The notes beneath the pieces were generated by a model, which was not told the DNA's origin, made no database searches, and saw only the letters and a program-made list of their open reading frames with translations. From the NCBI GenBank assembly GCA_965214605.1, contig OZ243961.1, positions 4,096,001 to 4,160,000 on the forward strand: a stretch of DNA of 64,000 bases, in the 5' to 3' direction. The DNA is from an uncultured Candidatus Binatia bacterium. Its GTDB lineage: Bacteria > Desulfobacterota > Binatia > Bin18. How positions within the stretch are numbered: the first letter of the stretch is position 1; every line of letters starts with the position of its first letter. Shown here piece after piece: positions 3,303 through 26,887 of the stretch. Made by a program: the position numbers and the translations under genes.

Positions 3303-3573
3303 GGTCTGGCCCTCCTCTGTCGTTTATGAATGAGATGGCGCGCTTATATATCCTGATGACCGCAAAAGCAAGCTGAGCGAGGACGGGCTGTAGGGGCGTT
3401 TCAGCCGCGCGCTGTGTCGAACCGGAAGACGGGCTGGGCCGGGGACTGAGGGAAGGTCTTTTGAAGGAGCGTCTCTTCTTTCCCAGATGCTCATCCTCGT
3501 TCACCTTGGTTGACCAAACGTACCAAGTAGGTATCAATACGGAGGCGGACAATACATACGGAGGAGAGAGGTT

Positions 3574-5298
3574 ATGCAGGACGTTTTGATGCGGTGGATT
3601 TGTCAAGCCAGTCTGGCGGTCGCGCTGCTGGTGGCGCTCAGTGTCGGTGCGGTGGCCGACCAACACGCCGAATCGGATGAGGGTCTGGCGTCGGTGACCA
3701 ATGAGCGACTGCTCAAAGGAACGCTGAATGGGAGCGACTGGCTGATGTACGGCGGCAATTATGAAAGCTGGCGGTTCAGCCCGCTGACCGATATTGACCG
3801 CCACAATGTCAAAAAGCTCCAGGCCGCCTGGGTTTTTCAGACAGGTATTCCGGCCCAGCTCCAAGCCTCTCCGGTAGTGGCGGACGGGGTGCTGTATCTG
3901 ACCGCGGCCTACAACAGTTTGTTTGCCATCGACGCAGTGAGCGGCGAGATGCTGTGGAGATATGATCATCCGCTCCCAAAGGACATGCGGATCTGCTGCG
4001 GTCCGGGCAACCGGGGTCCCGCCATTGCCGGTGATCTGCTCTACATGGGCACCCTAGATGCCCGGGTGCTGGCGCTCAATCGCAAGACTGGCAAAGTGGT
4101 ATGGAATATCGAGGTGGATAATTATCGCAATGGCTTTAGCGTGACCGCCGCTCCGCTGGTGGTCAAAGATAAGATCATTGTCGGCATCGCCGGTGGCGAG
4201 TATGGCGTTCGGGGCTATCTGGACGCCTATGATGCCAAGACAGGTGAGCTGGTATGGCGTCGTTACACCATTCCCAATATGGGCGAGGCGGGGAATGAGA
4301 CTTGGGAGGGCGATTCCTGGAAGCAGGGTGGTGGGCCGACCTGGGTGACCGGATCCTACGATCCAGAAGCCGATTTACTGTATTGGGCAACCGGTAACCC
4401 GGCACCGGACTGGAACGGAGACAACCGTGAGGGCGATAATCTGTACACCAACTGTGTGCTGGCTCTGGACCCGGATACCGGCCAGCTGAAGTGGTATTTC
4501 CAATTCACACCACACGACATCTGGGATTATGACGGCAATACCGGCATGTTTCTCCTTGATGTCCAACGCGGGACAGAAACCGTCAAGGCCCTAGCGCAGC
4601 CGAACCGGAATGGCTTTTTGTACGTTCTTGACCGCCACAGCGGGAAATTTTTGCACGGCGCACGCTACGTTGAGCAGCTGAACTGGGCCAAGGGGCTTAA
4701 TGAAAACGGCCGGCCACAGGTTGACCCCAAATACGTCCCAATGAAGGGTGGTAACCCTGAGCTGATCTGCCCCGGCAATGTTGGAGGCCAGAATGGCTCC
4801 TATGCTGCGGCCTACAGCCCCACAGCACACGCGATCTTTGTGCCGACGATTGAGAGCTGCGGTAAGATGGAAAAAGCTACCGCGATGTTTATCCAGGGCG
4901 TTCCGTTTTGGGGTGGCGGCCCTGGAGAGACGCAGGGCGATCTGGGCACCGCCTATGGCCATGTCTCGGCTATTGATCCGACGAGCGGCCAGGTCAAGTG
5001 GCGCTATAAAGACAAATATCCGATGGTTGGCGGCGCATTGGCGACGGCTGGCGGTCTAGTGTTTACTGGTAATCAACAGGGCTATGCTCTGGCCTTGGAC
5101 GACACGACCGGTGAGCTGCTGTGGAAGTTCCAAACTGGCTCGACGGTACGTGGTCAGCCAATCACGTATAAAATCGGCGGACGCCAATATGTGGCAATCC
5201 CAAGCGGGGCGGGCGGTCTGGTTGTCAGCATTGTTGGCGAGAATCCCAATATCAGCAAGGGGAGCGCGCTGTTGGTGTTTGCCCTGCCCGAGGGCTAG
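3574..5298 (+). CDS. PQQ-dependent alcohol dehydrogenase (methanol/ethanol family), lanthanide-type motif
   Basis: Signal peptide, vicinal disulfide RICCG, AGGEYGVRG, WATGNP, PHDIWDYDG and W-repeat beta-propeller motifs. Confidence 0.9.
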   Translation: MQDVLMRWICQASLAVALLVALSVGAVADQHAESDEGLASVTNERLLKGTLNGSDWLMYGGNYESWRFSPLTDIDRHNVKKLQAAWVFQTGIPAQLQASPVVADGVLYLTAAYNSLFAIDAVSGEMLWRYDHPLPKDMRICCGPGNRGPAIAGDLLYMGTLDARVLALNRKTGKVVWNIEVDNYRNGFSVTAAPLVVKDKIIVGIAGGEYGVRGYLDAYDAKTGELVWRRYTIPNMGEAGNETWEGDSWKQGGGPTWVTGSYDPEADLLYWATGNPAPDWNGDNREGDNLYTNCVLALDPDTGQLKWYFQFTPHDIWDYDGNTGMFLLDVQRGTETVKALAQPNRNGFLYVLDRHSGKFLHGARYVEQLNWAKGLNENGRPQVDPKYVPMKGGNPELICPGNVGGQNGSYAAAYSPTAHAIFVPTIESCGKMEKATAMFIQGVPFWGGGPGETQGDLGTAYGHVSAIDPTSGQVKWRYKDKYPMVGGALATAGGLVFTGNQQGYALALDDTTGELLWKFQTGSTVRGQPITYKIGGRQYVAIPSGAGGLVVSIVGENPNISKGSALLVFALPEG

Positions 5299-5356
5299 AA
5301 TCCAGGATATCCTCGAAGGATGGGGCGGGCCGCCTTCGGACGGCACCTGCTGCCGA

Positions 5357-6472
5357 TCAGCTCTGGGCGGCGCTCTGCCACGCCCGCCCCATTGCATCTG
5401 CCGCTAAAATCGCGTCTGCAACCATATCAGGGCTGACCTCAAACGGTTCGTTATGGATGGTCTCACCCTCGGCCGTGGCCCGGGCGGCAACCTGGGCGAG
5501 CTGCTCACGCGGCATGTCGGCCCCAAGACCGATCTCGTCCAGCGTGATGGGCAGACCGACCTGGCTGCAGAAGTGCAGAACGGGATCGATCACCGCGCGT
5601 GGCTTGCCTTCCATCACCAGCTGGGTCATCAGGCCGTAGGCCACCTTTTCTCCGTGATAGTACGGGTGGGTCTGAGCGGCTTCGGTCAGGCCGTTGTGTA
5701 CAGCGTGGGCGGCCGCCAGTCCAGACGATTCAAAGCCCAGACCGGACAACAGGGTGTTGGCCTCAACGAGACGTTCCAAGGCTGGATTGACGACATTATT
5801 TTCGACCGCCCGCAGAGCATCCGGTCCGTCTTCGACCAGGATGTTGTAACATAGTTCGGCCAGCTTCTCGGCGCTCCGGGTTGAGGCGCCACCGCGCATA
5901 TTTTGAATATGGCCTGCAACACAGGTCTTGGCTTCAAACCAGGTGGCCAGGGCATCCCCCATACCGGCGACTAGCAGGCGGGGTGGAGCCTGAGCCACCA
6001 CGTGCGTATCAACCAGCACCAGATCGGGATTCTTGCGGTAAAAACGGTATTCCTGAAAGACGCCCTGCTCGGTGTAGATAACCGACAGCGCACTACACGG
6101 TGCGTCGCTTGAGGCAATGGTCGGACAGTTGACCACCGGTAGGTTGAGGTCATCGGCCGCCGCCCGTGCGGCATCCAGCACTTTTCCACCGCCCGCGCCA
6201 ATCACCACCTGACTTTTGTTGTCCCGGGCGCTTTGCTTAATCCGTTCAATCTCGGGATATGAGCACTCGCCACCAAACTGATGTACAGCGTGACGAAGCC
6301 CGGCTTGGCTTAAATGCTGCTGCCAGACTTCGGACAGCAGCCGAATCGCGCTCCTTCCAGCAACAATCAGGGCCGGGCCCGCGAGCCCAATTCGTTGCAT
6401 TTCCGTGCCCAGTTGAGCGGTGGCGTTTTTTCCTTGGACGTAATGGCTTGGCGCCGAAAAGACCGAAAGCAT
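5357..6472 (-). CDS. gldA: Glycerol dehydrogenase (iron/zinc-containing ADH family)
   Basis: GGGKVLD, PTIASSDAPCS, GMGDALATWFEA, GLAAAHAVHNGLT and HGEKVAYG motifs; AAGGAGG RBS before ATG 6472. Confidence 0.9.
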   Translation of the reverse strand: MLSVFSAPSHYVQGKNATAQLGTEMQRIGLAGPALIVAGRSAIRLLSEVWQQHLSQAGLRHAVHQFGGECSYPEIERIKQSARDNKSQVVIGAGGGKVLDAARAAADDLNLPVVNCPTIASSDAPCSALSVIYTEQGVFQEYRFYRKNPDLVLVDTHVVAQAPPRLLVAGMGDALATWFEAKTCVAGHIQNMRGGASTRSAEKLAELCYNILVEDGPDALRAVENNVVNPALERLVEANTLLSGLGFESSGLAAAHAVHNGLTEAAQTHPYYHGEKVAYGLMTQLVMEGKPRAVIDPVLHFCSQVGLPITLDEIGLGADMPREQLAQVAARATAEGETIHNEPFEVSPDMVADAILAADAMGRAWQSAAQS

Positions 6473-6577
6473 AGCCGCCTCCTTGAGGTACGGGTCCTTA
6501 GTATACAGCCAGTCCCGGACAGTATAGACAAAGACTGGTCGGTGCGGCAAGCGAGGAAAAAAGGAAGACGGACTCGA

Positions 6578-7438
6578 ATGCATATGAGGCAACACCTCTT
6601 ACAACTACAACGCGGCTCGGGGCGGTGGCTGTGGTGTATTGTCTGGCTCGTTGCCACCACGTGCCAGCCCGACCCTCCTGAACTCGGCAGCTATGCCTAT
6701 GGACGGCATGTCGTTGACTGTACGCCGGGAACCCGTCCGGGGCTGGCCGGCGTCCAGGATGACGAACGGTCGGCCAAGGGTATCAGCTATAATGTCCGCA
6801 CCCCGGCCAATTACGACCCACGCGTTGCCCATCCCCTGCTGATGGTCTACGCCCCGGCCGGGGTCAATCGGTTTGGCAGCGAGTCCTTGACCGATCTGAC
6901 CAAAGCGGCCACCCAGGCCGGTTTCATTATCGCCTATGCGAATCGTCGCCGTCTGTCGATCAAGGTCATTGAAGAGCTGGGGACGATTCCTGATCTGATT
7001 GCCGAAAAGTGGTGTGTTGATCCAAGGCGAATTTTTCTGACAGGCCACTCCGACGGAGGAACGGTTGCTGTTGCGCTGGCCGTCTTAGAACAAACGCAGC
7101 ATATCCCGACCGCAATCGCGCCAAGCGCGGCCGGATTCACAGCCCAGGATCTTGCCGCCTTTGCCTGCCCGGCTCCGCTGTCAGTGATGGTGATGCACGG
7201 CGCTGAGGATCGACATTTCCCCGGCTATGGCCAACAGATTGCAGACTGGTGGGCGGTCTGTAACCGCTGTGGGAGACGAGCGAGCCCACGCCGGGCTGAT
7301 GGGTGTCGCAGCTATCCTAACTGCGCCGGTGGTGTGAGGACGGTGTACTGTGAGGGAACAGGCTCCCACCTGGAGTGGCCCGGCTTCAATCCACAGCTCC
7401 TAGCCTTCTTCACTGGACTCAGCCAATATCGCCCATAA
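6578..7438 (+). CDS. Exported alpha/beta-hydrolase, PHB-depolymerase/LpqC-like esterase
   Basis: N-terminal hydrophobic segment ending ATTC (lipobox-like), nucleophile elbow GHSDG, HGAED, and SHLEWPG His motif. Start is ATG 6578 or 6584. Confidence 0.75.
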   Translation: MHMRQHLLQLQRGSGRWLWCIVWLVATTCQPDPPELGSYAYGRHVVDCTPGTRPGLAGVQDDERSAKGISYNVRTPANYDPRVAHPLLMVYAPAGVNRFGSESLTDLTKAATQAGFIIAYANRRRLSIKVIEELGTIPDLIAEKWCVDPRRIFLTGHSDGGTVAVALAVLEQTQHIPTAIAPSAAGFTAQDLAAFACPAPLSVMVMHGAEDRHFPGYGQQIADWWAVCNRCGRRASPRRADGCRSYPNCAGGVRTVYCEGTGSHLEWPGFNPQLLAFFTGLSQYRP

Positions 7439-7444
7439 CCCGCT

Positions 7445-7511
7445 AAAATATAAGGATATTTTTTATCTCTGGGCAACGCTTGACATCCAGCCTGGTTTTA
7501 TTCCATATAAG
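7445..7511 (+). promoter_or_regulatory. Possible sigma70-type promoter of the CuMMO operon
   Basis: Perfect TTGACA at 7480-7485 preceded by an AT-rich tract; the -10 element (CATATAAG near 7504) is a weak match. Confidence 0.35.
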
Positions 7512-7583
7512 AGGAACTCCGCACGGGTGGGGCCCAACATGGGTGAACTGAGAGCCGACAGTCTCAGTGGCGGATGCAATTAG

Positions 7584-8168
7584 ATGAACTGTACGAGAAA
7601 GACTGGATGGGTCAGGATGGCGTTGGCAACGCTTGGCGCGGCCCTACTGCTGGTTGGAACGCCAGCTGAGGCGCATCGAGACCGTGGACCAAACGACGCG
7701 TGTCGGCGAGAGATTGGAGCTTCGCTTCTGCACATAACGCTGTATCAGACCCAGTTCGATCCGGTTGCCGAGTACTGCGAAGAAGTCCCACGGGCGGGCA
7801 AGGCACTCATGGTTGTCGATGTGACCCCGGGCCAATTACGGGCAGTCCCCCTTGGGCTCGAAATTATCGCCACCAACGAATCGGGTCAGTCGCAGGCCGT
7901 GGTGTCGGTAGCGCCTCGGATTTATGAGCGCGGCGTGATGAATACAGAGGTGGTCTTTGTCAAGGACAAGGAGTATGTTGCCCAGGTGATGGTCGAGCTG
8001 GAAGAGGGCAAAGCGCCACAACTCCTGGCCTTTCCCATTCAGGTCGCGTCGTGGTATAAGGCAATGATGGTGCCGGGGCTGATTGTGGGTGGGGTGCTCA
8101 TCTTTGTGCTCATTTCAGTCTTCCGCTATACAATTGTCTCCCGGCAGCACAGCGAGGCGTTGGCCTAA
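7584..8168 (+). CDS. pmoD: PmoD/AmoD-like copper protein (copy 1)
   Basis: Signal peptide AEA|H, motif C-x7-L-x-H-x14-C (PmoD motif is Cx7MxHx14C), C-terminal TM helix, directly upstream of xmoC. Confidence 0.75.
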   Translation: MNCTRKTGWVRMALATLGAALLLVGTPAEAHRDRGPNDACRREIGASLLHITLYQTQFDPVAEYCEEVPRAGKALMVVDVTPGQLRAVPLGLEIIATNESGQSQAVVSVAPRIYERGVMNTEVVFVKDKEYVAQVMVELEEGKAPQLLAFPIQVASWYKAMMVPGLIVGGVLIFVLISVFRYTIVSRQHSEALA

Positions 8169-8216
8169 AAGAGGCATACATTAGGAGAGTGCGTCAACAA
8201 GCACAGGAGGAATACG

Positions 8217-9056
8217 ATGGCTCAGGCACAAGCGATGTCGGTATCAAGGGGATCCGGTGATGGGGCGACGATGAATCCGACCGACTGGTCGGTCGGTTGG
8301 AAACCGCTGTTCTGGGGGTGTGGGTTGGTCATGGGGGCCAACATTTTTCTGTGGTTCTGGAACTACTGGTATATGTTTACGGCCGGGCTGAACTCTGCTA
8401 GCTGGGAGTTCACGCTGTACTACCGTACGCTGTTCTGGGCGGAGTTGATCATTATCGGCGCATTCGCCGGAATCTGGCTGGGTTGGTTGATCCGGACCGG
8501 TCGAGAAATAGAGGGCCAGCCGGTTGCGCGGTCCGAACAGGTCCGGCGGATTGCTATTTTGTGGAGCCTGGTCGGCGTGACCAGCCTGTCGGTTTATCTG
8601 GAGGCCAGCTTCTGGCCAAATTGGGACGGTTCATGGCATCAAACCATGGTACGCGACACCGCGCTCACCCCAACCCACATTCCGATGTTTTATTTCTTTT
8701 TTCCACTGACCGTTGTGTTGGCCGTGGGGACCTATCTGTATGGGCGCTACCGCATTCCGAGTCTGTATGGCCGAGACAAAGGGTTTCCATGGTCGTTTGC
8801 CCTGCTGATTGCGGCGGCAGCGCTGGAATGTATGGCGGTCGCGGCCAACGAATGGGGCCATAGTCTGTGGATCTCCGAGGAGATTTTCTCGGTGCCTTTT
8901 CACTGGCCGTTTGTGATCTACGGCTGGCTGGCCAGCGGGATGTTCGCCGTCTGGGGAGAAACCATCGTCCACCTCTTCGAGATTGAGAAAGCTGAAGAAG
9001 AGGATGAGACTGACTCCCCGTCCCAGCCGGTAGAGCAACCCGTGTCTGCCGACTAA
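8217..9056 (+). CDS. pmoC: Copper membrane monooxygenase subunit C (divergent PmoC/AmoC)
   Basis: DGSWHQTMVRDTALTPTH (CuC Asp/His/His) and NEWGHSLWISEEIFSVPFHW (CuD Asn/His/His); several TM helices; AGGAGG RBS. Confidence 0.93.
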   Translation: MAQAQAMSVSRGSGDGATMNPTDWSVGWKPLFWGCGLVMGANIFLWFWNYWYMFTAGLNSASWEFTLYYRTLFWAELIIIGAFAGIWLGWLIRTGREIEGQPVARSEQVRRIAILWSLVGVTSLSVYLEASFWPNWDGSWHQTMVRDTALTPTHIPMFYFFFPLTVVLAVGTYLYGRYRIPSLYGRDKGFPWSFALLIAAAALECMAVAANEWGHSLWISEEIFSVPFHWPFVIYGWLASGMFAVWGETIVHLFEIEKAEEEDETDSPSQPVEQPVSAD

Positions 9057-9076
9057 TCGCCCCGTTCACCGTAGTT

Positions 9077-9112
9077 CGGTGTGGGATCGGCTGAACTCCC
9101 ACACCGCTTTAT
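9077..9112 (+). terminator. Intercistronic stem-loop between xmoC and xmoA
   Basis: Perfect 10-bp stem CGGTGTGGGA/TCCCACACCG followed by CTTTAT. Confidence 0.55.
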
Positions 9113-9142
9113 CTCAAGACCTCGCACAGAGAGGCAGCAGGC

Positions 9143-9946
9143 ATGGCAGACGCACCAGCTACAGTGACAGACCTGACGGCCGAGGCCGAACGCCAAAAAC
9201 GGCTCGAGCTTAAGGCCCTGTTGGAAAAAAAGTATAAATGGATCGATTGGAAGTGGGACCTGATCTTCTGGGTCACGGCCATCTTTGTCGTTGCTGGAGC
9301 GGCAGATATTACCAAACAGCTGTTTGCCGGTGACTGGGACTTCTGGACCGACTGGAAAGATCCCCAGTGGTGGCCGGTGGTCACCGCTTTTGCCACGATC
9401 ATCATTCCGTCTGCCCTACAGTATATCCAGTGGGTGGCGTGGCGCTTCCCCACCGGGGCAACCTACACTGCGTGTTGCATGTTTTTGGCAGCCTGGGTGG
9501 GGCGTTACTTCCAGTGGAATGTGGCCGAAACCTATCCTATGAACTTTGTGTGGCCGATCTCTATCGTCGGGGCAGGTATCCTGATGGACTGGACTCTGAT
9601 GAAAACCAAGAGTTTCATCCTCACCTCCCTCATTGGTGCACATGTCTGGGCCATTGCGGTGTGGGCCTATAATTATATTCCCCTGTCACCCTTCCTCCAA
9701 CCCGCCCACTTCATGGATCATGTCGTGACGGTCTCCGATGTCCAGGGTATTGCCTATATTCGATCGCAGACGCCGGAATATTTGCGTCTAATTGAGCGTG
9801 GTGCGCTGCGCAGCTTCCTGGGCGAAACCCAGTACGTGTCTCTGGTATTTGGCGGCACGGTCGCCTTTGCTGGGTATTGGATCGGCCAGTTCATCGGTCG
9901 CTACCTAGCGGTCTGGCCGATTAGGCGCTACTTAAAAACGCTGTGA
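9143..9946 (+). CDS. pmoA: Copper membrane monooxygenase subunit A (divergent PmoA/AmoA)
   Basis: GDWDFWTDWKDPQWWP, PTGAT, YPMNFVWP and YIRSQTPEYLRLIERGALRSF motifs. Confidence 0.93.
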   Translation: MADAPATVTDLTAEAERQKRLELKALLEKKYKWIDWKWDLIFWVTAIFVVAGAADITKQLFAGDWDFWTDWKDPQWWPVVTAFATIIIPSALQYIQWVAWRFPTGATYTACCMFLAAWVGRYFQWNVAETYPMNFVWPISIVGAGILMDWTLMKTKSFILTSLIGAHVWAIAVWAYNYIPLSPFLQPAHFMDHVVTVSDVQGIAYIRSQTPEYLRLIERGALRSFLGETQYVSLVFGGTVAFAGYWIGQFIGRYLAVWPIRRYLKTL

Positions 9947-9953
9947 GGTCGCT

Positions 9954-10235
9954 ATGCTAAGCACAACGCAATGGAGCAAAGTCGCAGGTGCTAGCCTGGC
10001 CGCCCTGCTCGCAACGCCGTCACTCGGACACGCCCATGGCATAGGACTGGACGAAATGGCCCCTCCTGTAGTAACGGCAATCCTGCTTGGTCTGGCGTGT
10101 TACTGGCTGATGGTGCTGTGGCCCGCCGGGAGACACACTAAGCTCCCGTCGTTTGAGACGCCGGTCAGCGAAAAGATTCGGATCAAACAGAAGCCGCGCC
10201 TGCGGGTGGTGGAGAGGAGACTGGTCGATGACTAA
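9954..10235 (+). CDS. Small unknown membrane protein between xmoA and xmoB
   Basis: 93 aa; GAGG RBS; signal peptide GHA|HG, one TM helix and a basic tail. Starts 7 nt after xmoA and overlaps the xmoB start by 8 nt. Confidence 0.7.
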   Translation: MLSTTQWSKVAGASLAALLATPSLGHAHGIGLDEMAPPVVTAILLGLACYWLMVLWPAGRHTKLPSFETPVSEKIRIKQKPRLRVVERRLVDD

Positions 10236-11487
10236 GTGGGCGACCGGGCAGGTCCTGCTTGGCCTGATGCTTTTCGGCTGGACTGCCGTGATCGGTGTTC
10301 CTCAATGTTTTGCCCATGGCGAGGCCGCAGATGAGCCTTTCCTGAAAAACCTAACAACCGCGTTTTTCGACGTGTCGGTGTCTCCGACCGAAATTCAGGT
10401 CGGCGAGCCGGTCACTATCACCGGTAAGGTCCAGATCCTGGAGACCTGGCCGCACACGCTCTACCCCCCGGAAATCGCCTCTATCATGCCGGTGGTCCCC
10501 GGACCGGTGTTTCTGCTCAAGGAGCGAACAGTCAACGGGGAATCCTCAATCGGTTCGTTTTTTGTTGAAAAGGGTGGAATTTACGAGTTCCGCATGGTGC
10601 TCATCGGCAAAGAACCCGGCGAATGGCATGTACATCCTGGGATTGCCATCCATGGAACCGGAACGCTCATCGGCCCGGCTGAATGGGTCAACGTAGCGCC
10701 TAGCACAACCCCACTCGAATTTCCGGTGACCCTGCTGAGCGGTGAGACCATTGAACTGAGTAGTTACGGCGGAAGCTTCGTTGTCTGGTGGTCATTTCTC
10801 GGCTTTGGACTGGGTCTTGTCTGGATGTTGTATTGGACCCTGACCAAGAGAACCGTCACAAACCTAGCCGTGACCCTCCAGATTCCCCCTAACGATGACG
10901 CGCCTGATCTGGGTCTCATTACCCCACGTGACCATATGTGGATGAACGTGATCGCCGGGGCTGCGCTCATCATGCTGGTAGCCGGCTGGACCTATGCAAC
11001 GACGAGCTATCCGGTCAGATGGCCGCAACAGACCGACTGGTTCACGCCAGAATTGATCTCACCGGGACCGAAAATGGCCGAGGTGCGGGCTACCGGGGCG
11101 ACGTTTGATGAGGGGACCGAGACGCTAGAGATGGACGTCCGGGTCACGAACGTTGACGACAGCCCGATCACAGTGAAGAAATACACGATGGCAATGGCCA
11201 GCTTTGTCAACGGTGGCGAACAAGAACAGGCCGCCGCGGGACCGCGCGATTTTGTCGGGACCCTCAACGTCGCCCCCAACGTTCCGATCGAACCGGGCCA
11301 GACTCAAGAGCTGAGTCTCAGCATTTCGAGCGCCTTGTTCGGCACCGAACGCCTGATTCCGCTCAGCGCCCCGCAGCAATATATCGCCGGTGTCTTCCAG
11401 TTTGAGAACTCAGACGGCGAGCAGGAGTTGGTCACGGTCCGCTCAGGCCTCATCCCAACCCGCTTCACCCCCCAGTATCTGCCCTAG
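10228..11487 (+). CDS. pmoB: Copper membrane monooxygenase subunit B (divergent PmoB/AmoB)
   Basis: Signal peptide CFA|HGE (N-terminal His), EPFLK, PGPVF..KER, GEWHVHP (CuB His-x-His), two central TM helices and a second cupredoxin-like domain; GAGGAG RBS before ATG 10228. Confidence 0.92.
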   Translation: MTKWATGQVLLGLMLFGWTAVIGVPQCFAHGEAADEPFLKNLTTAFFDVSVSPTEIQVGEPVTITGKVQILETWPHTLYPPEIASIMPVVPGPVFLLKERTVNGESSIGSFFVEKGGIYEFRMVLIGKEPGEWHVHPGIAIHGTGTLIGPAEWVNVAPSTTPLEFPVTLLSGETIELSSYGGSFVVWWSFLGFGLGLVWMLYWTLTKRTVTNLAVTLQIPPNDDAPDLGLITPRDHMWMNVIAGAALIMLVAGWTYATTSYPVRWPQQTDWFTPELISPGPKMAEVRATGATFDEGTETLEMDVRVTNVDDSPITVKKYTMAMASFVNGGEQEQAAAGPRDFVGTLNVAPNVPIEPGQTQELSLSISSALFGTERLIPLSAPQQYIAGVFQFENSDGEQELVTVRSGLIPTRFTPQYLP

Positions 11488-11516
11488 GCCCACCGGTCGG
11501 GGAGGTCTGCATATCG

Positions 11517-12107
11517 GTGTGGATCGGCATCTTCCTGTCACTTATCTGGCCGACTGTGCTCCTCCTCGCACCGCTCCCACTGTGGGCGCACGGCGGGGTT
11601 GGGATTGAGCAAGACACGTGTGTCGAGCGAGCTGGTCCATCGTTGATTCATTTTGTTGCTTATCAACCCGAGCTGAGTCCAAGCCAAGAGTTCTGTACCC
11701 GCTTGCCCCAGGTCGGGAGCACGATCCTTGTTTTTGATTTGATTGACGAGGTCGTCCGCAAACGTCCGGCAAGTCTGCGGGTAGTAGAAACCGGTACTAC
11801 GGCTGAGCCCCGTACCCTGCTCCATATTCCGGCTCAAACATATCTGAATGGGGTGCTCAACGCCGAGCTCACATTTGACGAGCCGGGCCACTACGCGGCA
11901 GTGGTGACGCTGGAGAATCCGTATCAGCAGATCACATTTCCGTTTCGCGTTGGACGGTGGTCGGTTCAGCTCCTGGTGGTGCTCAGCGGCCTCGTTTGTG
12001 GCGCGCTTGGCGGCTATTTCTTCTTCCGGGGCAAAAAGAAGCCGCCGCAGCTTAGGCGGTTGAAAAGCTACCCCCCCTTTTCCTACTCGTCATCTCCCCA
12101 TACATAG
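11517..12107 (+). CDS. pmoD: PmoD/AmoD-like copper protein (copy 2)
   Basis: Signal peptide LWA|HGGVG, C-x7-L-x-H-x14-C motif, C-terminal TM helix, in the canonical position after pmoB. Confidence 0.8.
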   Translation: MWIGIFLSLIWPTVLLLAPLPLWAHGGVGIEQDTCVERAGPSLIHFVAYQPELSPSQEFCTRLPQVGSTILVFDLIDEVVRKRPASLRVVETGTTAEPRTLLHIPAQTYLNGVLNAELTFDEPGHYAAVVTLENPYQQITFPFRVGRWSVQLLVVLSGLVCGALGGYFFFRGKKKPPQLRRLKSYPPFSYSSSPHT

Positions 12108-12108
12108 A

Positions 12109-13821
12109 GTGCTTATGTCTCCGTCTCGTCTTCTGAAAGTGTCGATGCTGGTCCTGGTCCTGCTTGGCGCTGCGGTGTTTTTGCTGCCGCGTTCTTGGCT
12201 GCCGCAGACTGTCCAAGATTTGCTATATGCATCTTTCGGAGAATCCCCGTATCGACGTCCGCCGGACACTACAGACATAGAACTCGGCCTGGCTGAGCCG
12301 TTCTGCCCGGATCTTCACCCAGACTGGCGCCAACAGCAGGTCGTGGCCGGTATCACGATTGAGGAATCACTGGTGTGTGAGCCGGACAATCCGGCTGAGG
12401 TGGCCGCCTTTGTCAGAGGCACCAACAATGTACCGCTGGCAGTCCTCATGCAAACCCGGCTGACCCCAACGACGGTGGTCAAAGACGAGGACCGGGATGG
12501 AGACGGTGACCCTGACGTGATTCATATCCGTCTTGAAGTTGCCGAACTCAACGGTCGTTCGCCGGATATTCCGGATCCCTTTCCGCGCTATGCCATCGCT
12601 CCTGGAGTGCAGCCTGGGCTATGGGTCTTTGCTCCTAAAACACGCGGTATGGCGACCGAAAACTTTGACACCGACGTGGCCAACCCCAGCCTGCGTGCTC
12701 CGGCTCCAGTCATTCGTGTGGAACAGGGCGACCGCCTCCGGCTGACATTGGAAAACACCCATTATTTGCCCCATACAATCCATCTACACGGAGTCGATCA
12801 CCCCTTTGTCGACAGCAATGGCGAGGGCAATGATGGCGTCCCTATCGCCAGTGAACAACCCGTGCTTCCGGGCCAAAGTCGGACCTATGATCTGACTCCG
12901 CGCCAGACCGGCACTATGTTTTATCACTGCCATGTACAACCTAACGTCCATATTTTGATGGGCTTACAGGGGATGTTTGTGGTTGAGGAAAATCTGCCCA
13001 ACAATTGGGTACAGACGCTCAACCCAGGCGCCGGACGGGTGCGTTTTCCTTCGCAAGGTGTCCGCCGGACGTACGACCGCGAGTATGATCTGCACTACCA
13101 AGACCTGGATCACACTCTGCACGAGGTGATTCAAACGGCCAATGACCCCCGGCTGGTGGCCGAGGCCACCAGCCGCCGCTACGATATTACCGATCAGACG
13201 CCCGATTATTTTGTCCTTAACGGCCGTTCGTTTCCGTATACCATTCGGGAGTCCCTGGTGGTCGTCAAAACTAACCAGGACGTGAAACTGCGCGTGCTGA
13301 ACGGAGGGGCAGAGGGGATTGCTCTGCACACCCACGGCCACAAAATCAGGATTACCCATTACGACGGTGTGGAGCATAATCCGGCCGCCCAGATTACCCG
13401 CGATGTAGTCTGGCTAGGTCCCGCCCAACGGCTTGATTTACACCTGCGGACGGTCAACGATGGGCTCCACAACTACGGACCGGGCGTGTGGTTGTTGCAC
13501 GACCACAAAGAGAAAGGCGTGACCACAAACGGCATCAATCCGGGCGGTAATATCAGCGCGATTGTGTACGAATCTTTCTTGGCCGAAGCCGGCTGGCCGA
13601 AGACACAGGGCATGGACTGGACGCCATTTTTCAGCCAGGCCTACTATCAGAAGAAAGTCCCGGTCTGGAGCACCCTCGACGACTCGAGTCTGCTCGGTCA
13701 AGCCGCCAGCCGGACCCCGGGTTGGGGCCGTGCAGCGCTTCTTGGGCTGCTAAGCGGGCTCCTGCTCGGCGGGCTGGCGGCTCGGCTGCGCTCTGTGTTT
13801 CAACGTCCACCAAGGGGCTAG
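12109..13821 (+). CDS. Membrane-anchored two-domain multicopper oxidase
   Basis: Domain 1 has HTIHLHG and YHCHVQPNVHILMGL (T1 site complete). Domain 2 has LHTHGH and LHDH (no T1 Cys). Also a DxDxDG loop and N- and C-terminal hydrophobic segments. Start is GTG 12109 or ATG 12115. Confidence 0.85.
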   Translation: MLMSPSRLLKVSMLVLVLLGAAVFLLPRSWLPQTVQDLLYASFGESPYRRPPDTTDIELGLAEPFCPDLHPDWRQQQVVAGITIEESLVCEPDNPAEVAAFVRGTNNVPLAVLMQTRLTPTTVVKDEDRDGDGDPDVIHIRLEVAELNGRSPDIPDPFPRYAIAPGVQPGLWVFAPKTRGMATENFDTDVANPSLRAPAPVIRVEQGDRLRLTLENTHYLPHTIHLHGVDHPFVDSNGEGNDGVPIASEQPVLPGQSRTYDLTPRQTGTMFYHCHVQPNVHILMGLQGMFVVEENLPNNWVQTLNPGAGRVRFPSQGVRRTYDREYDLHYQDLDHTLHEVIQTANDPRLVAEATSRRYDITDQTPDYFVLNGRSFPYTIRESLVVVKTNQDVKLRVLNGGAEGIALHTHGHKIRITHYDGVEHNPAAQITRDVVWLGPAQRLDLHLRTVNDGLHNYGPGVWLLHDHKEKGVTTNGINPGGNISAIVYESFLAEAGWPKTQGMDWTPFFSQAYYQKKVPVWSTLDDSSLLGQAASRTPGWGRAALLGLLSGLLLGGLAARLRSVFQRPPRG

Positions 13822-13824
13822 CCT

Positions 13825-14688
13825 GTGGTGATCTTTTTCCTGGCTGTGTTTGCTGTCTGCGTATTTCCTGCGCTGGGTTTGAGCCAAGAAACCGCGCCAC
13901 GCGCGCCTCAGGTCCACACCGATCACCGAATGGATGCTGAGCCGCATGCCGATCACCGAATGGATGCTGAGCCGCATGCCGATCACCGAATGGATGCTGA
14001 GCCGCATGCCGATCACCGAATGGATGCTGAGCCGCATGCCGATCACCGAATGGATGCTGAGCCGCATGCCGATCACCAAGTCCATGAGCATCACGCTATG
14101 CGGCTGGACGCCTCAGGTATGGTTATGAATGAAAACACCGACGAACTGCCGCGAGGCTGTCCACGCATCGCTGGCGAACAACATATCACCGTCCGCGCCG
14201 GTAAGGAATTTGCGCGGGATTTTTCAGGCACGATGTTCACCTATGACCAGCGAGAGTGGGCGGTCGAACCGTGTACACAGCTCACCGTCAGCCTGATCAA
14301 TACCGATGAGGTTCGCCACCAATGGATGTTGCATGGTCTGCCCCGCTATCTGTATGACCAGGGTATGTTCACCCTGGAGGTCGCGGGAAAAGGTCAGAAA
14401 ACCGCCAGCTTTATCGTGCCGCCGGGAAGCAAGACGTATCTGGTCCATTGTGACGTGCCACACCATATGGAAAAAGGGATGAAAGCCCAGTTAAAGGTCG
14501 GTGGTGGGGATGGCGATTTGCCGAGTATCCCGGGGATTACCGGCCCCCGCCTGGAAGATCCCTATCTGTTTGAGTGGGGGTGGACAGGAATAGGGTTGAC
14601 CCTTGTTGGCGGGCTGCTTGGTCTAGTCCTAGCCAGCAGAGGACCGGGTCTGCTGCGACAGGTGCGGGTGAAACAAATACGCAAGTGA
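13825..14688 (+). CDS. Cupredoxin (type-1 copper) protein with His/Met-rich N-terminal repeat and C-terminal TM anchor
   Basis: Signal peptide, (DHRMDAEPHA)x5, HQWMLHG and HCDVPHHMEKGM (C-x4-H-x4-M). Confidence 0.8.
   Translation: MVIFFLAVFAVCVFPALGLSQETAPRAPQVHTDHRMDAEPHADHRMDAEPHADHRMDAEPHADHRMDAEPHADHRMDAEPHADHQVHEHHAMRLDASGMVMNENTDELPRGCPRIAGEQHITVRAGKEFARDFSGTMFTYDQREWAVEPCTQLTVSLINTDEVRHQWMLHGLPRYLYDQGMFTLEVAGKGQKTASFIVPPGSKTYLVHCDVPHHMEKGMKAQLKVGGGDGDLPSIPGITGPRLEDPYLFEWGWTGIGLTLVGGLLGLVLASRGPGLLRQVRVKQIRK
13921..14077 (+). repeat. Perfect 30-bp coding tandem repeat, 5 copies plus a partial copy
   Basis: GATCACCGAATGGATGCTGAGCCGCATGCC repeated exactly five times (13921-14070), then GATCACC. 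Confidence 0.97.
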
Positions 14689-14707
14689 AATTAAAAAGGA
14701 GGCCGTT

Positions 14708-15568
14708 ATGAAAGTAGGAATCTTTGAGTTCGCCATCGACCGGTCCGTCGATCCAGCCCTTGTGGCCAAGCGGACCGAGGAGCTGGGCTTCGCCTCGTAC
14801 TGGGTCCCGGAGCATCCGATTATTCCGATACAGACCACCTCACCCTATCCGGGCGCTGAGGACGGGATTATTCCGGACGAGTATGGGCGCATTCTCGACC
14901 CATTCGTGGCCCTGGCCAGGGCTTCGGCAGTCACTCGCACAATTGAGTTGGGGACCGGCATTTGCCTTATTCCTGAGCGGAATCCGCTGCTACTAGCCAA
15001 AGAAGTAGCGACCCTGGATAAGCTGTCGGGCGGCCGTTTTATTCTGGGGATTGGCGCCGGCTGGCTCAGAGAAGAAACCGAGATCATGGGCGGGGATTTT
15101 GCTCATCGCTGGAGCCAGACCAGGGACGGAGTCTTGGCTATGAAGGAGCTGTGGACCCAAGATGAAGCCGAGTATCACGGGAAGTTCTACGACTTTCCGG
15201 CCGTGCGATCTTTCCCCAAGCCGGTCCGGAAACCGCATCCACCGGTGTATATGGGTGGCTCGTCGAAGTATGTGTTCAAGCGTGTGGTGGAGTGGGGCGA
15301 CGGCTGGATGCCGGTCCTGTCGCCGCTCGAAGACATTAAGGCTGGTCGCCAACGCCTGAATGAGATGGCCGAACAGGTGGGCCGTGATCCCAAGTCTATC
15401 CAGGTGCTGGCCTTTGGTTTTCCCGGCAAATATCGGACCCGCCAGGAACTGGCCGAACTCCAGGACGCAGGCGTCGATCATGTCACCATCTGGCTGCAGG
15501 AGTGTGACAACGGTGAGGCCGCCGCGCTGGCCGAGTTGGACGGCCTGGCCAAAGAGGCCCTGGCGTAG
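14708..15568 (+). CDS. LLM-class (probable F420-dependent) oxidoreductase
   Basis: WVPEH, LDPFVALA, RNPLLLAKEVATLD.LSGGRFILGIGAGW and PKPVRKPHPP motifs. Confidence 0.88.
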   Translation: MKVGIFEFAIDRSVDPALVAKRTEELGFASYWVPEHPIIPIQTTSPYPGAEDGIIPDEYGRILDPFVALARASAVTRTIELGTGICLIPERNPLLLAKEVATLDKLSGGRFILGIGAGWLREETEIMGGDFAHRWSQTRDGVLAMKELWTQDEAEYHGKFYDFPAVRSFPKPVRKPHPPVYMGGSSKYVFKRVVEWGDGWMPVLSPLEDIKAGRQRLNEMAEQVGRDPKSIQVLAFGFPGKYRTRQELAELQDAGVDHVTIWLQECDNGEAAALAELDGLAKEALA

Positions 15569-17314
15569 CACACTTCTCAGTCCTTCTAGACCAGCCGCAC
15601 TGGGGAGAAACCGTTTGTCAGCGACTTGGCCGACCTCTTGGAGTCTTCTTGCCGCAAGGAGTCTCGGGACCGTCATCGCTTGTGTCCCTCTGCCAAGAGC
15701 GATGCCGGCCCGCACCTAAGGAAGAAGCGGCCCTCGCAAGGCTGGGTGAGAACGTTGTCTGAGCCTCTTACGCTCGCCGATAGGCATCCCCCATCCTAAG
15801 AGAACCTGCAGCAGCAAGGCCAGGGCGAGTAAAGCTTTTATCTGGCTTTAGGCCCGAGGTTTTTCAATTCCATGGCAGAGCTCGCTTTCCAATCTGTCGT
15901 ATCGGCTGTTTGATGCCCTCTAGTGCAGGCTTGCGCGCGGACACGGCCGTCACGTCGCAAAGGAGCCTATTGATGGTTGCTTCGGAGTCCCTTTATTGGG
16001 TCTTCAGTCTATCCGCCTGTTGTTGGGCTTAGTGCATCACCATGCGTTCGTGCAGTTTTTTCCGTAGGGGGACGATTTCGCGACCGCGCTGCGGATTGTT
16101 CTCGTGTCGACTGAGGAATTCATGAACGCTTGCAATATTGGCTCTTTGGTGTCGGTTGAGTCCTGCTAGATCTCCCGGTGTCTGTCTTGAGGTATTACTG
16201 AGCCTGCTAGATAGCCTCTTCGACCATCTGAGCTTGGGGCTTGCTAGGGTTCACACTGTTCAGCACCTCAAAGATGAGCTCGAAGTAGACAACGAATCCT
16301 ACCGGCCGTGATAATGATGTACCGGAAGGCTCTGCAGCGGCGAAAAAGTCGTTCCTCTTCATCGCGTTCCTTATACTTCTCGGGGCCAGCCGTCCCAGGG
16401 GGTGATTGCGCTTCGGCGGCACGATCGGAAACGTCCCGAACTCCCCCCCGCGATACCGAGTCACCGCGTCCGCAATAGGGGCGCGGTCCATCACCCCATA
16501 GTCGTCCACAGCGGAGTCCGGGCCAGCAGCTTACGACCCTCAGGCGCAGTGCCGGCCGGCCTGGGCGACACCGCAACACTGACGGCCAAATCAGCATCCA
16601 CAACAGGTCCCGCGGCACTTGTCGATGGTTTGCAGCCCATTTTTTACGTCCCCACCCCGGCCGCATGTCCTGGCTCTCCACACCACTTCCAGAGCCCTGC
16701 TCTAGCCCGTACAAAATCGCTGACAGTCCTGTCCGAGTGTCTACCTTGACGTTCCTCCGCTGAGGTGGGAGCAGCTCTATGTTCTCTCACATTGCTGCTG
16801 GGGAGGGGTCTCGGCGCTGAACCTAGCTCCTGTGGAGAATAGGATCCCCGGTCCTGGGCGCGAACGCAAACCGGATGGATCGCGACGCGGGCGGGATAAG
16901 ATATTGGGCCTATCCATGGCGCTTCTGGATTCCGCTCCATCCGGTCGCCTCAGCTTAGTCTACGGTCATAAGTTGGGGCCCTTGATCCCTTCGTGGCTCT
17001 TGCCAGGGTCGTACGCGACTTCTGCCGTCTAGCGGCTCAGCACCGCCCTTCCCTTTTTCAAAAATGAATTTCTGATGGTGTCAAATCAACGCCGAGACCA
17101 CTTGCTCCGCACTGCAAGCCCCGCTCCAACCATCGCCGAGGTGCATCATATCGTGGGCGGGGTGGCCTGCCAGAGGTTGCAGCCTATTCCCCCCAAAGCG
17201 TGACACAAGAGAGTGACCTCTCCCATTTTATGCCCTTGACATAGCCCGGCGGTGGGATAGATGAGAGGAGGACGAAGCGGGTTGTATCCGTTTCTCGCCA
17301 AAGGAGCCGTGACC

Positions 17315-17629
17315 ATGATCTATGAACTACGGACGTATCAGCTCGCGTTTGGCGGGCTGCCGGAATATCTGGAGGTGGCCAAAACAATGATTCTGCCCGG
17401 CGTTGCCGAGCATGGCCTTAAGCCGGTCGGATTTTGGTACACCGAGGTTGGTCAGCTCAACGAAGTCTGCCATCTGTGGGCCTATCAGGATTTGAACGAA
17501 CGCCAGGAGAAATGGGCTAAATGGGCGCGCGACCCTCGTCGCGCCGAGGTCGGCAAACGTCTGCGGGGAGTCATTCTCAGCCAGACCAATAAGATCTTAT
17601 CTCCGACTGAGTTTTCGGCCCTGCAATAA
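17315..17629 (+). CDS. NIPSNAP family protein
   Basis: MIYELRTY, GFWYTEVGQLNEVCHLWAY and ILSPTEFS motifs; AAGGAG RBS. Confidence 0.88.
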   Translation: MIYELRTYQLAFGGLPEYLEVAKTMILPGVAEHGLKPVGFWYTEVGQLNEVCHLWAYQDLNERQEKWAKWARDPRRAEVGKRLRGVILSQTNKILSPTEFSALQ

Positions 17630-18031: not shown

Positions 18032-19195
18032 GTGAAAATCGCCTACTTTGACGCTTTCTCCGGGATCAGTGGAGACATGACGGTTGGCGCCTTTCTGCAG
18101 CTCGGTGTATCGCTTGACGCCCTACGGCATGAGCTGAATACGCTTGACCTGACCGGCTATCGGCTCCGTCAGACCGTCCGCCAGCGTAGCGGTATTCAGG
18201 CCACGAAATTCGAGGTTGAGGTCCACCAGGTGCAGGGAGAACGCAGTGCTCGATCCATTACTGATATGCTCCGGACGGGTGGTCTCGTCCCCCAAGTCCG
18301 GGATACAGCGTTGCGTATTTTTGACGTCTTAGCCCGAGCCGAGAGCCACATCCACGGCGTTCCACCTGAAGAGGTGCATTTTCATGAAGTCGGGGCGGTC
18401 GACTCGATTGTCGACATTGTCGGAATCGCATTTGGTCTCCACACCCTCGGTATTGAACAGGTGTATGTCTCACCCCTCCCAATGGGTAGCGGGGTGGTGG
18501 CGTCACGGCATGGCCTCTTGCCCGTTCCTGGGCCAGCCACGCTTGAGCTCCTCAAGGGTTTCCCGGTGTGTTTAGCCGACGGCCAGAGTGAGCTGGTAAC
18601 GCCGACCGGGGCGGCAATCCTTGCTGCGGTCGCCCAGCCCGGAACCGTTCCTGCCGTACAGATTGAGGCGGTCGGGTATGGAGCTGGAGAGAGGGAACTG
18701 AGTGATCGTCCGAATCTACTCCGGGTGATCCTTGGCCACACCCACCAGCCGCCTCGGACCGATCAGCTGCTAGTCTTGGAAACAAATATCGACGATCTTA
18801 ATCCCGAGTTCTATGAGCATATCATGGAGCGCGTGCTGAGCGCGGGGGCGCGCGATGTCTTTTTATGTCCCATTCATATGAAGAAGAATCGCCCCGGGAT
18901 TCTGCTGTGGGTGTTGTGTGAGGCCGCAGACCGGGAACGCCTGAGCGGGCTGCTCTTTGCCGAGACCTCAACCTTGGGGATTCGCGTCTATCCGGTTGAG
19001 CGGTTGGCGCTGCGACGTGAACACACCAGCCTTGAGACCCCCTATGGGCGGATAGGCCTCAAGCTGGCACATCGACCGGATGGGCGCATCCACATCGCTC
19101 CCGAGTATGAAGACTGCAAACGTTGTGCGCGGGAGCACGACGTGCCGCTCAGCGTGGTGTATGAGGCAGCCCTGCACTTGGCACGGGAGGGATAG
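18032..19195 (+). CDS. larC: Nickel-pincer cofactor biosynthesis protein LarC
   Basis: YFDAFSGISGDM, VHFHEVGAVDSIVD, HG.LPVPGPAT, ELVTPTGAA, LETNIDD, MKKNRPG, ETSTLGIR and PEYEDC motifs. Confidence 0.93.
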   Translation: MKIAYFDAFSGISGDMTVGAFLQLGVSLDALRHELNTLDLTGYRLRQTVRQRSGIQATKFEVEVHQVQGERSARSITDMLRTGGLVPQVRDTALRIFDVLARAESHIHGVPPEEVHFHEVGAVDSIVDIVGIAFGLHTLGIEQVYVSPLPMGSGVVASRHGLLPVPGPATLELLKGFPVCLADGQSELVTPTGAAILAAVAQPGTVPAVQIEAVGYGAGERELSDRPNLLRVILGHTHQPPRTDQLLVLETNIDDLNPEFYEHIMERVLSAGARDVFLCPIHMKKNRPGILLWVLCEAADRERLSGLLFAETSTLGIRVYPVERLALRREHTSLETPYGRIGLKLAHRPDGRIHIAPEYEDCKRCAREHDVPLSVVYEAALHLAREG

Positions 19196-22644: not shown

Positions 22645-23676
<1,032 letters not shown>

Positions 23677-23714
23677 CTCCCAGACACAGCTCCTAATTTA
23701 CTGAGCAATCTGTT

Positions 23715-25044: not shown

Positions 25045-25050
25045 AGAACA

Positions 25051-26868: not shown

Positions 26869-26887
26869 CGGAAGTAAGGAGGGGGAG

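Follow-up and report, generated by a model that had tools for sequence, protein, structure and literature searches.

A stretch of 64,000 nt from the genome of an uncultured Candidatus Binatia bacterium (the window; coordinates below are positions in it unless a locus is named) carries a unit of eight genes, 7584..14688, that codes a copper membrane monooxygenase (CuMMO) together with copper proteins. The best explanation of this locus is that it is a hydrocarbon-monooxygenase-type CuMMO operon (xmoC, xmoA, orfX, xmoB) set inside a periplasmic copper-handling system. The last three genes of the unit, coding a PmoD-like protein of the Cx9H class (D2), a type-C two-domain multicopper oxidase (MCO) and a cupredoxin (Cup), are called the trio here. 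Judging from sequence, we give a probability of about one half to the view that the trio would be a module for handling copper, that is for its capture, redox-conditioning and delivery, on behalf of membrane cuproenzymes.

The eight open reading frames (ORFs) lie on the + strand in the order PmoD-like (D1), XmoC, XmoA, OrfX, XmoB, PmoD-like (D2), MCO, Cup. The common orientation, close spacing and order of these genes had been described, with the position of each ORF, in an earlier note made from the bare letters of this DNA, and all were confirmed. The successive genes are separated by 48, 86 and 7 nt, then orfX and xmoB overlap by 8 nt if xmoB starts at the ATG at 10228 (a start chosen from an alignment of 52 homologous sequences), and the remaining gaps are 29, 1 and 3 nt. 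The largest gap is thus 86 nt.

The core enzyme belongs to the AmoA/AmoB/AmoC superfamily of CuMMOs. Across XmoCAB the Pfam families PF02461, PF04744 and PF04896 matched at 182.9, 261.7 and 146.6 bits, with gathering cut-offs of 27.5, 22.7 and 26.7 bits. The NCBIfam equivalog cut-offs for particulate methane monooxygenase (pMMO) and bacterial ammonia monooxygenase (AMO) were widely missed by all three subunits: XmoA scored 192.6 and 162 against cut-offs of 290 and 318, XmoB 268 and 203 against 336 and 395, and XmoC 158.5 and 138.7 against 319 and 281. Aligned to the PmoB of 3RGB, XmoB keeps the CuB ligands, namely the His of the N-terminal 'A|HGE' and the pair in 'WHVH'. Aligned to the PmoC of 3CHX, XmoC holds the D-x3-H-x12-H (CuC) and N-x3-H-x13-H (CuD) patterns. 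These three ligand sets are all kept in the window proteins and are invariant across the Binatia XmoB and XmoC alignments.

With a completeness of 99.99%, the genome holds just one CuMMO, and xmoA occurs there in one copy only. Identity of this XmoA to other Binatia sequences is 87-96%. It is 64-72% with sequences that bear the labels Caldinitratiruptor, Dormibacteraeota, Carbonactinospora and Lentzea, and 42-45% with HmoA of Mycolicibacterium chubuense NBB4 and Rhodococcus. The hmoCAB enzymes of NBB4 and WAY2 are CuMMOs acting on hydrocarbons. Relatedness was evaluated on a quick maximum-likelihood tree of 128 XmoA rows with SH-aLRT support only, which leaves out AmoA, verrucomicrobial, SAR324 and Nocardioides (CF8) references. 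On this tree the window XmoA falls in a 21-row clade (SH-aLRT 98) nested in a multi-phylum clade of 116 rows (98, stem 1.21). The larger clade is separate from NBB4-type hydrocarbon monooxygenases, from a clade of second Binatia paralogues (100), from pXMO and from the canonical pMMO outgroup rows. HmoA of NBB4, WAY2 and M. dioxanotrophicus form their own clade (99), with the window XmoA outside it. The substrate is most likely a short-chain alkane or related small molecule.

A second, highly divergent CuMMO paralogue, CAB in order and lacking OrfX (XmoA identity 35-41%, long-branch clade), is present in most genomes of sister genus g8 and in five of seven genomes of the window's own genus; the window genome does not carry it. 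The loci with this paralogue are L003-L009 (G001, G002, G004, G005, G014, G020, G024).

The earlier note had proposed a distinct CuMMO clade. This holds in that the missed cut-offs and the separate 116-row clade put the enzyme outside characterised pMMO and AMO. The clade, the CAxB order and pmoD were already reported in 2021, and to that extent the proposal was not new. According to the main text of Murphy et al. 2021 (mBio, PMC8262859), CuMMO genes of Binatota, as Binatia were formerly called, are found in two orders, Bin18 and Binatales, and are organised as CAB, CAxB or CAxxB, pmoD is present in 5 of 11 genomes, and pmoA falls in an 'Actinobacteria/SAR324' cluster and a TUSC cluster. Those clusters and our locus belong to one phylum; both have the CAxB arrangement, in which a hypothetical gene separates A from B, both have pmoD, and both lean to hydrocarbon monooxygenases and not to pMMO. 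In two later papers the pmoA-like genes of Binatia are grouped close to hydrocarbon or butane monooxygenases, and methanotrophy is doubted (PMC11264602, bioRxiv 10.64898/2026.02.02.703227). Metagenomics has thus already revealed the core enzyme with its interrupted gene order, though it was never characterised; our enzyme core joins, as a new member, a clade that is known but uncharacterised.

All related loci with sequence at this place, 79 of 79, have OrfX between A and B (75 by BLAST, two read by eye, two as frameshifted copies). The two frameshift-split copies, both in Binataceae (L084:8738-9200 and L088:8738-9200), reflect either assembly error or decay. In an alignment of 59 sequences A27, H28, P38, Y50, W56 and P57 are invariant; the predicted layout is a signal peptide, one transmembrane (TM) helix carrying Y50, W56 and P57, and then a basic tail. 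Since the signal peptide ends at the invariant Ala-His, the predicted mature N-terminus is His-Gly. A His directly past the predicted cleavage site was also read by eye in D1 (AEA|HRDRGP), D2 (LWA|HGGVG) and XmoB (CFA|HGE). No Pfam family matches OrfX, and all 462 members of its family (E <= 1e-3) are named just 'hypothetical protein'. The best ESM Atlas score, 0.79, was to a hypothetical-protein cluster whose commonest phylum is Binatota, and it lies under the useful range.

A role of OrfX as a supernumerary subunit is plausible by analogy, because recent AMO and pMMO structures hold an additional single helix beside subunit C (PMC12804982, PMC13058606); the evidence for it at our locus is the positional conservation. 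The 'enigmatic helix' of pMMO/AMO and archaeal AmoX/Y/Z are, as those two sources describe them, small single-TM proteins encoded with or bound to the enzyme, as OrfX would be. This likeness is one of description, drawn on our side from genes. OrfX is predicted to have its N-terminus outside and its basic tail inside, opposite to what is reported for the N. halophila helix (PMC12804982). A complex prediction of XmoC+XmoA+XmoB with OrfX as partner gave a score of 0.01, and with controls absent this number weighs neither way on binding. The CAXB order has also been reported for Ca. Angelarchaeales (PMC9038741).

In actinobacterial hmoCAB (M. chubuense NBB4 plasmid pMYCCH.01; Rhodococcus sp. WAY2) a small single-TM 'AHGG..DE' ORF likewise accompanies the operon, but it follows B instead of lying between A and B, and these loci are without PmoD, MCO or cupredoxin. 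The ORF past hmoB carries 'LAHGGQ[LM]T.DE[IM]' and one TM helix (L094:8101-8316, L095:8078-8359, L097:6077-6373), resembling the OrfX motif 'AHGGMAGPDELGPP' plus TM. Homology is not claimed: beyond the shared 'AHGG..DE..TM' motif, hhalign gave E 0.0048 with a probability of 7%.

D1 and D2 have 194 and 196 aa, and neither has a Pfam family. Both are classed as PmoD/AmoD proteins on a predicted signal peptide, a periplasmic domain of cupredoxin-like kind that holds two conserved Cys, a C-terminal TM helix and similarity to the PmoD of 6CPD (Table 1); the TM helices were read from sequence. Both conserved Cys of 6CPD align in D1, where the His is retained and Met49 is replaced by Leu, and both align in D2, which also has Leu at the Met49 position. 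The CuA-forming motif Cx7MxHxnC is absent from the two proteins, both of which have C-x9-H-xn-C. As stated in the text of Fisher et al. 2018 (PMC6189053), the Cx9HxnC class of PmoD binds copper without forming CuA, for which Cx7MxH is needed. The same text describes the Cx9H class as 'often near copC' and the Cx8M class as near MCOs, whereas here Cx9H is fixed beside a two-domain MCO.

Orthologues of D1 were found upstream of xmoC in 51 of 80 loci. In Binataceae they have a long form of 380-406 aa, and all 15 of 15 carry a C-terminal SCO1/SenC domain. SCO1/SenC has the fold of the copper chaperone that serves in assembling cytochrome oxidase. Elsewhere in the window genome there are two SCO1 genes. 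Such a fusion is not mentioned in the text of Fisher 2018 (PMC6189053). The missing copCD that the earlier note had remarked on was borne out genome-wide: CopC (PF04234) and CopD (PF05425) gave 0 Pfam matches in the 99.99%-complete genome, and control genomes matched.

The MCO carries three Cu-oxidase families of Pfam. By phmmer both of its domains align to a metagenomic laccase, mgLAC (2ZWN), and to the blue copper oxidase of Nitrosomonas europaea (3G5W). It is assigned by sequence to the type-C two-domain class, with the type-1 Cys/His/His/Met set in domain 1 and eight trinuclear-cluster His; the type-1 site in domain 1 and the four HxH/HCH pairs are shared with both solved proteins. Among 18 homologues the ligands H222/H225/H227, H273-C274-H275, H281, M284, H407/H409 and H464/H466 are invariant, and outside the ligands so are the DxDGDGDPD loop at 128-136 and C66/C90. 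Unlike 2ZWN and 3G5W, the MCO has an N-terminal extension of ~145 aa, which holds the two invariant Cys and the loop, a C-terminal TM helix as membrane anchor, and an obligatory cupredoxin partner gene. Most MCO homologues begin with a twin-arginine-like 'RR[LF]L' motif, while the window protein (12109-12200) and its nearest relatives have S-R or P-R; the export route may therefore differ within the genus.

Cup has a predicted signal peptide, a disordered His/Met-rich tail, the motif GMVMNEN, a cupredoxin core and a C-terminal TM helix. GMVMNEN, H165-x4-H170 and H208-C209-x4-H214-x4-M219 are invariant. The AF2 model (core pLDDT ~85-94) is a cupredoxin beta-sandwich with H165, C209, H214 and M219 as ligands, so the protein is modelled as an auracyanin-like type-1 cupredoxin. 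The top Foldseek hits were auracyanins and two-domain laccases, and the auracyanins 1QHQ, 2AAN and 6KOL had probability 1.00 and target-normalised TM-scores of 0.55-0.60. The H-x4-H and H-C spacing is reminiscent of NirK; identity as a nitrite reductase was rejected on the Met at the catalytic-Asp position and on the single domain.

The His/Met-rich stretch that the earlier note saw in this last protein is real. It contains a perfect tandem repeat (100% matches, score 318) that is shorter and imperfect in the close relatives L010 and L011, which points to a recent expansion with possible length polymorphism; distant relatives have just a short His-rich run. A His-rich run stands ahead of GMVMNEN in 19 of 19 aligned Cup homologues. 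Among the eight printed homologues from stand-alone or cytochrome oxidase contexts, seven have a His- or Met-rich tail (L127 is the exception). The protein collection holds about 3,150 relatives of Cup. No NCBIfam family matched Cup at E <= 0.01, CopI included, for which that collection holds a model. CopI of Rubrivivax gelatinosus is described as a periplasmic copper-tolerance cupredoxin with an intrinsically disordered N-terminal His-rich copper-binding region that acts as a copper buffer (PMC13308877). Cup is like it in joining a cupredoxin to an N-terminal stretch that is disordered and rich in His and differs in being membrane-anchored, always behind a two-domain MCO and without a family-model match. 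At best Cup may work like CopI; it is not a member of the CopI family.

How widely is the trio distributed? We surveyed 301 Binatia genomes, a set that includes an unpublished genome (G220) positive for CuMMO and negative for MCO. CuMMO was found in 68 of them: 46/48 in family f1, 1/1 in f2, 5/8 in f3, 15/49 in f9 (Binataceae) and none in the other 16 families. MCO was present in 50 (44/48, 1/1, 4/8 and 0/49 in the same families, none elsewhere). Of the 50 MCO-bearing genomes 49 also have CuMMO, the exception being G300 (84% complete), which is the only one of 233 genomes without a CuMMO match to carry MCO. MCO lies on the same contig as xmoA and at most 5 kb from it in 42 of 50, next to the window type of xmoA in 39 and to the canonical pmoA type in three. 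In another seven it is on a different contig (five assemblies of at least 480 contigs, G058 with ~20 and G021 with ~220). MCO never adjoins the second Binatia CuMMO paralogue. The earlier note had made its proposal depend on the downstream copper genes being syntenic elsewhere or co-transcribed, and the first is so: the MCO-Cup pair is syntenic in 42/50 MCO-carrying genomes. Neither this linkage nor the fixed place of OrfX is down to chance.

In the three genomes with the canonical type (G026, G042, G084) the neighbouring pmoA scores 370-379 bits to Pfam AMO. The order in G026 is pmoC-A-B (no OrfX), PmoD, MCO, Cup, esterase, and its PmoA matches Methylococcus PmoA at E 1.5e-110. The two trio-bearing CuMMO clades share only ~36% XmoA identity. 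In one further locus, L093 (G015:C97, 6847-15394), ~8.5 kb lie between xmoB and MCO-Cup and code a TPR/Trans_reg_C regulator, an HNH endonuclease and adenylate-cyclase-domain proteins. As this insert shows, the module can come apart from the CuMMO and still be retained.

Scanning metagenomes with the MCO alignment gave 80 loci at 53-77% identity. Where there was enough sequence downstream, Cup followed MCO in 62 of 63 loci, and where there was enough flank a Cx9H PmoD-like gene lay directly upstream in 44 of 63. CuMMO genes were seen in 10/80 and caa3-type COX1/COX2 in 15/80. At least 5 kb of flank was present on each side in 18 loci, of which five had CuMMO, seven had COX and six had neither. 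By Pfam, COX2-cytochrome c, COX1 and one or two COX3 stood beside the trio in five of 11 loci checked (COX4 too in L160), and the other six had unrelated neighbours. The trio is therefore a portable unit, which also occurs next to canonical pmoCAB, next to caa3 oxidase operons or by itself. It is not a private accessory set of this CuMMO clade, and the description of the copper genes as the operon's own, made in the earlier note, had to be given up. The two partners of the trio, CuMMO and caa3 oxidase, have in common that they are membrane enzymes whose copper sites face the periplasm.

Several features together favour copper capture, conditioning and delivery: the SCO1 fusion, the non-CuA class of PmoD, the CopI-like tail, the lack of a CopCD match, and membrane tethering, which is common to every accessory part (D1, D2, MCO and Cup). 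The disordered His/Met tail of Cup would capture periplasmic copper. The MCO, perhaps with the type-1 site of Cup as a relay, may hold the copper pool as Cu(II) or otherwise condition its redox state. The membrane-anchored PmoD-like metallochaperones would then deliver copper to those sites of XmoB and XmoC that face the periplasm, replacing the CopC/CopD route that was not found in the genome. OrfX would be a supernumerary single-helix subunit or an assembly factor, whose mature N-terminal His may bind copper, and the products of the CuMMO would pass to the neighbouring pyrroloquinoline quinone (PQQ) alcohol dehydrogenase. A wider version of this proposal is tentative and clearly less probable than the copper-handling reading itself: the trio might be a dedicated machine that metallates or redox-conditions periplasm-facing copper sites of CuMMOs and caa3 oxidases, an alternative to CopCD/SCO1/PCuAC, and OrfX, with its invariant N-terminal His, might bind copper as a fourth subunit peculiar to this hydrocarbon-type clade.

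A number of observations weigh against the copper-handling reading. Of 26 related genome loci with both MCO and Cup, 6 lack D2 (L010, L019, L027, L031, L040, L042). The N-terminal His is not universal among PmoD homologues of the trio, several of which have A|GGG, and the signal-peptide cleavage sites were read by eye. No Met-rich cuprous-oxidase insert was recognised in the MCO. The complete type-1 ligand set and auracyanin-like fold give Cup the look of an electron carrier. The 15 CuMMO-positive Binataceae genomes lack MCO while carrying the same CuMMO type, so the trio is dispensable for the enzyme. Related genomes in the Binatia counts are not independent samples, and 55/80 of the metagenome loci, many of them short, have no CuMMO or COX nearby.

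The look of Cup leads to the main rival reading, electron supply, which we consider unlikely. Cup would be an auracyanin-like membrane blue-copper carrier bringing electrons from alternative complex III or a PQQ-dependent alcohol dehydrogenase (PQQ-ADH) to CuMMO or caa3, MCO would be an O2-reducing overflow or partner oxidase, and the PmoD-like proteins would be further redox partners. The invariant H/C/H/M set and closest structures of Cup agree with this, as does the place of the trio beside respiratory caa3 operons. Moreover, in the sister genus (L012 and relatives) PQQ-ADH lies 30 nt past Cup with no adjoining cytochrome c gene. Binatota are reported to have alternative complex III, and their CuMMO reductant is left open (main text of PMC8262859). 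Yet the COX2 of trio-adjacent caa3 operons is already fused to cytochrome c domains, an MCO passes electrons to O2 and cannot feed a monooxygenase, and D1 and D2 are without the Cx7MxH needed for CuA. The SCO1/SenC fusion of D1 points instead to copper transfer, and long His/Met-rich disordered tails are unusual for electron carriers.

The loci where the trio stands alone or among unrelated genes, the Binataceae genomes without it and the CopI-like architecture of Cup (PMC13308877) would also fit general periplasmic copper resistance of CueO/CopI kind, unrelated to CuMMO, with the adjacency in Binatia being inherited linkage. We regard this as improbable. The single MCO among 233 genomes without CuMMO, its place next to xmoA in 42/50, and the attachment of the trio to two CuMMO clades so far apart in XmoA all speak for a bond with CuMMO; all parts are tethered to the membrane instead of soluble, and no efflux pump or copper sensor was noted among the window genes examined or in L090, where ORFs were read by eye. 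Detoxification of by-products, in which MCO would oxidise hydroxylamine or another reactive CuMMO product of ammonia co-oxidation with Cup as redox partner, is very unlikely: the second-best solved relative of MCO is the Nitrosomonas enzyme, the archaeal MCO Nmar_1354 is described as consuming NH2OH with O2 (PMC13058606) and the trio accompanies methane-type and hydrocarbon-type CuMMOs alike, but it also stands beside caa3 operons and alone, with no CuMMO gene within 8 kb, and the PmoD partner, the SCO1 fusion and the His-rich tail would go unexplained.

The features of the locus and its surroundings are collected in Table 1.

Table 1. Genes and sequence features of the CuMMO locus and its conserved neighbourhood (window coordinates).
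Feature	Position	Strand	Basis
D1, PmoD-family copper protein, Cx9HxnC class, predicted signal peptide and C-terminal TM helix	7584..8168	+	phmmer vs PDB 6CPD E 2.2e-7
XmoC, CuMMO subunit C	8217..9056	+	Pfam AmoC 1e-42
XmoA, CuMMO subunit A	9143..9946	+	Pfam AMO 1.2e-53
OrfX, 93 aa, predicted signal peptide, one TM helix, basic tail	9954..10235	+	59-sequence alignment
XmoB, CuMMO subunit B (ORF open from TTG 10153)	10228..11487	+	Pfam Monooxygenase_B 1.7e-77
D2, second PmoD-family protein (Cx9HxnC), first trio gene	11517..12107	+	6CPD PmoD E 8.1e-14
MCO, membrane-tethered, type-C two-domain, 570 aa	12109..13821	+	phmmer 2ZWN 6.5e-34, 3G5W 2.4e-32
Cup, membrane-tethered type-1 cupredoxin (modelled), disordered His/Met-rich N-terminal tail	13825..14688	+	Pfam Cu-oxidase_2 3.7e-4, AF2, Foldseek
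Perfect tandem repeat, 30 nt x 5.3, HADHRMDAEP units in Cup tail	13919..14077	+	Tandem Repeats Finder
LLM-class (F420-type) oxidoreductase, possible ninth gene	14708..15568	+	TIGR03619 261 bits, cut-off 166.9
PQQ-dependent alcohol dehydrogenase (methanol/ethanol family), conserved neighbourhood	3574..5298	+	TIGR03075 594 bits
Glycerol-dehydrogenase-family Fe-dependent alcohol dehydrogenase (Fe-ADH), conserved neighbour	5357..6595	-	NF006941 493 bits
Secreted alpha/beta-hydrolase (PHA-depolymerase-like esterase), conserved neighbour	6314..7438	+	weak NF050058 match 2.4e-12

The unit probably does not end at 14688. The LLM oxidoreductase gene begins only 19 nt past Cup, so that the unit may comprise nine genes. 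It adjoins Cup in L010, L011 and L038 as well, and in the sister genus PQQ-ADH lies between Cup and the LLM gene. The enzyme could act on alcohol or ketone products. A scan of 3000-17500 gave 5 promoter-like sites against 5.6 expected, the sole one on the + strand being 16286-16315, downstream of the LLM gene, and 27 weak terminator-like hairpins against 12.5 expected, nearly all within coding sequence. Such a scan is no help in delimiting the transcript. Composition gives no sign of a horizontal-transfer island, a reading that was rejected: the GC content of the locus, 0.56-0.585, lies inside the window range of 0.54-0.61.

Upstream, Fe-ADH is kept in most close loci. The esterase is kept beside the cluster and also follows Cup in G026 (L090:6780-7661). 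Together with PQQ-ADH these genes look like a small alkane and alcohol oxidation island. The D-x-D pattern is typical of lanthanide-dependent enzymes of XoxF/ExaF type, and PQQ-ADH holds the stretch 'DIWDYDG'. No cytochrome c or xoxJ gene adjoins it at the locus. Two adjacent ORFs on the - strand, 2628-3011 and 3030-3302, read like two halves of a peroxiredoxin/redoxin-type protein, so this gene may be frameshifted. Farther away, a LarC-type nickel-insertion protein (18032-19195) and an mreB-mreC-mreD-PBP2-rodA cluster (22648-27988) are ordinary housekeeping neighbours.

With respect to earlier work, the main text of Murphy 2021 (supplements aside) is without the words multicopper, cupredoxin, laccase, SCO1, chaperone and copC, and does not describe the trio, the SCO1 fusion or the features of OrfX. 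Our literature search, with supplements and subscription papers outside its scope, found no description of the trio, the PmoD-SCO1 fusion or OrfX.

Soils are rich in Binatia, and a role in consuming methane or alkanes is under discussion for them; gene-based claims on this group should treat the enzyme as an uncharacterised hydrocarbon-type CuMMO. Where particulate methane, ammonia and alkane monooxygenases get their copper and electrons has long been an open question, and it limits their heterologous expression. Through the SCO1 fusion, PmoD-type proteins are tied in a concrete way to copper chaperones already known. The locus as a whole offers a compact candidate helper set, consisting of two PmoD-type proteins, an oxidase, a putative copper-catching cupredoxin and a conserved single-helix protein, and this set accompanies CuMMOs from two clades that differ greatly, as well as a further membrane cuproenzyme.

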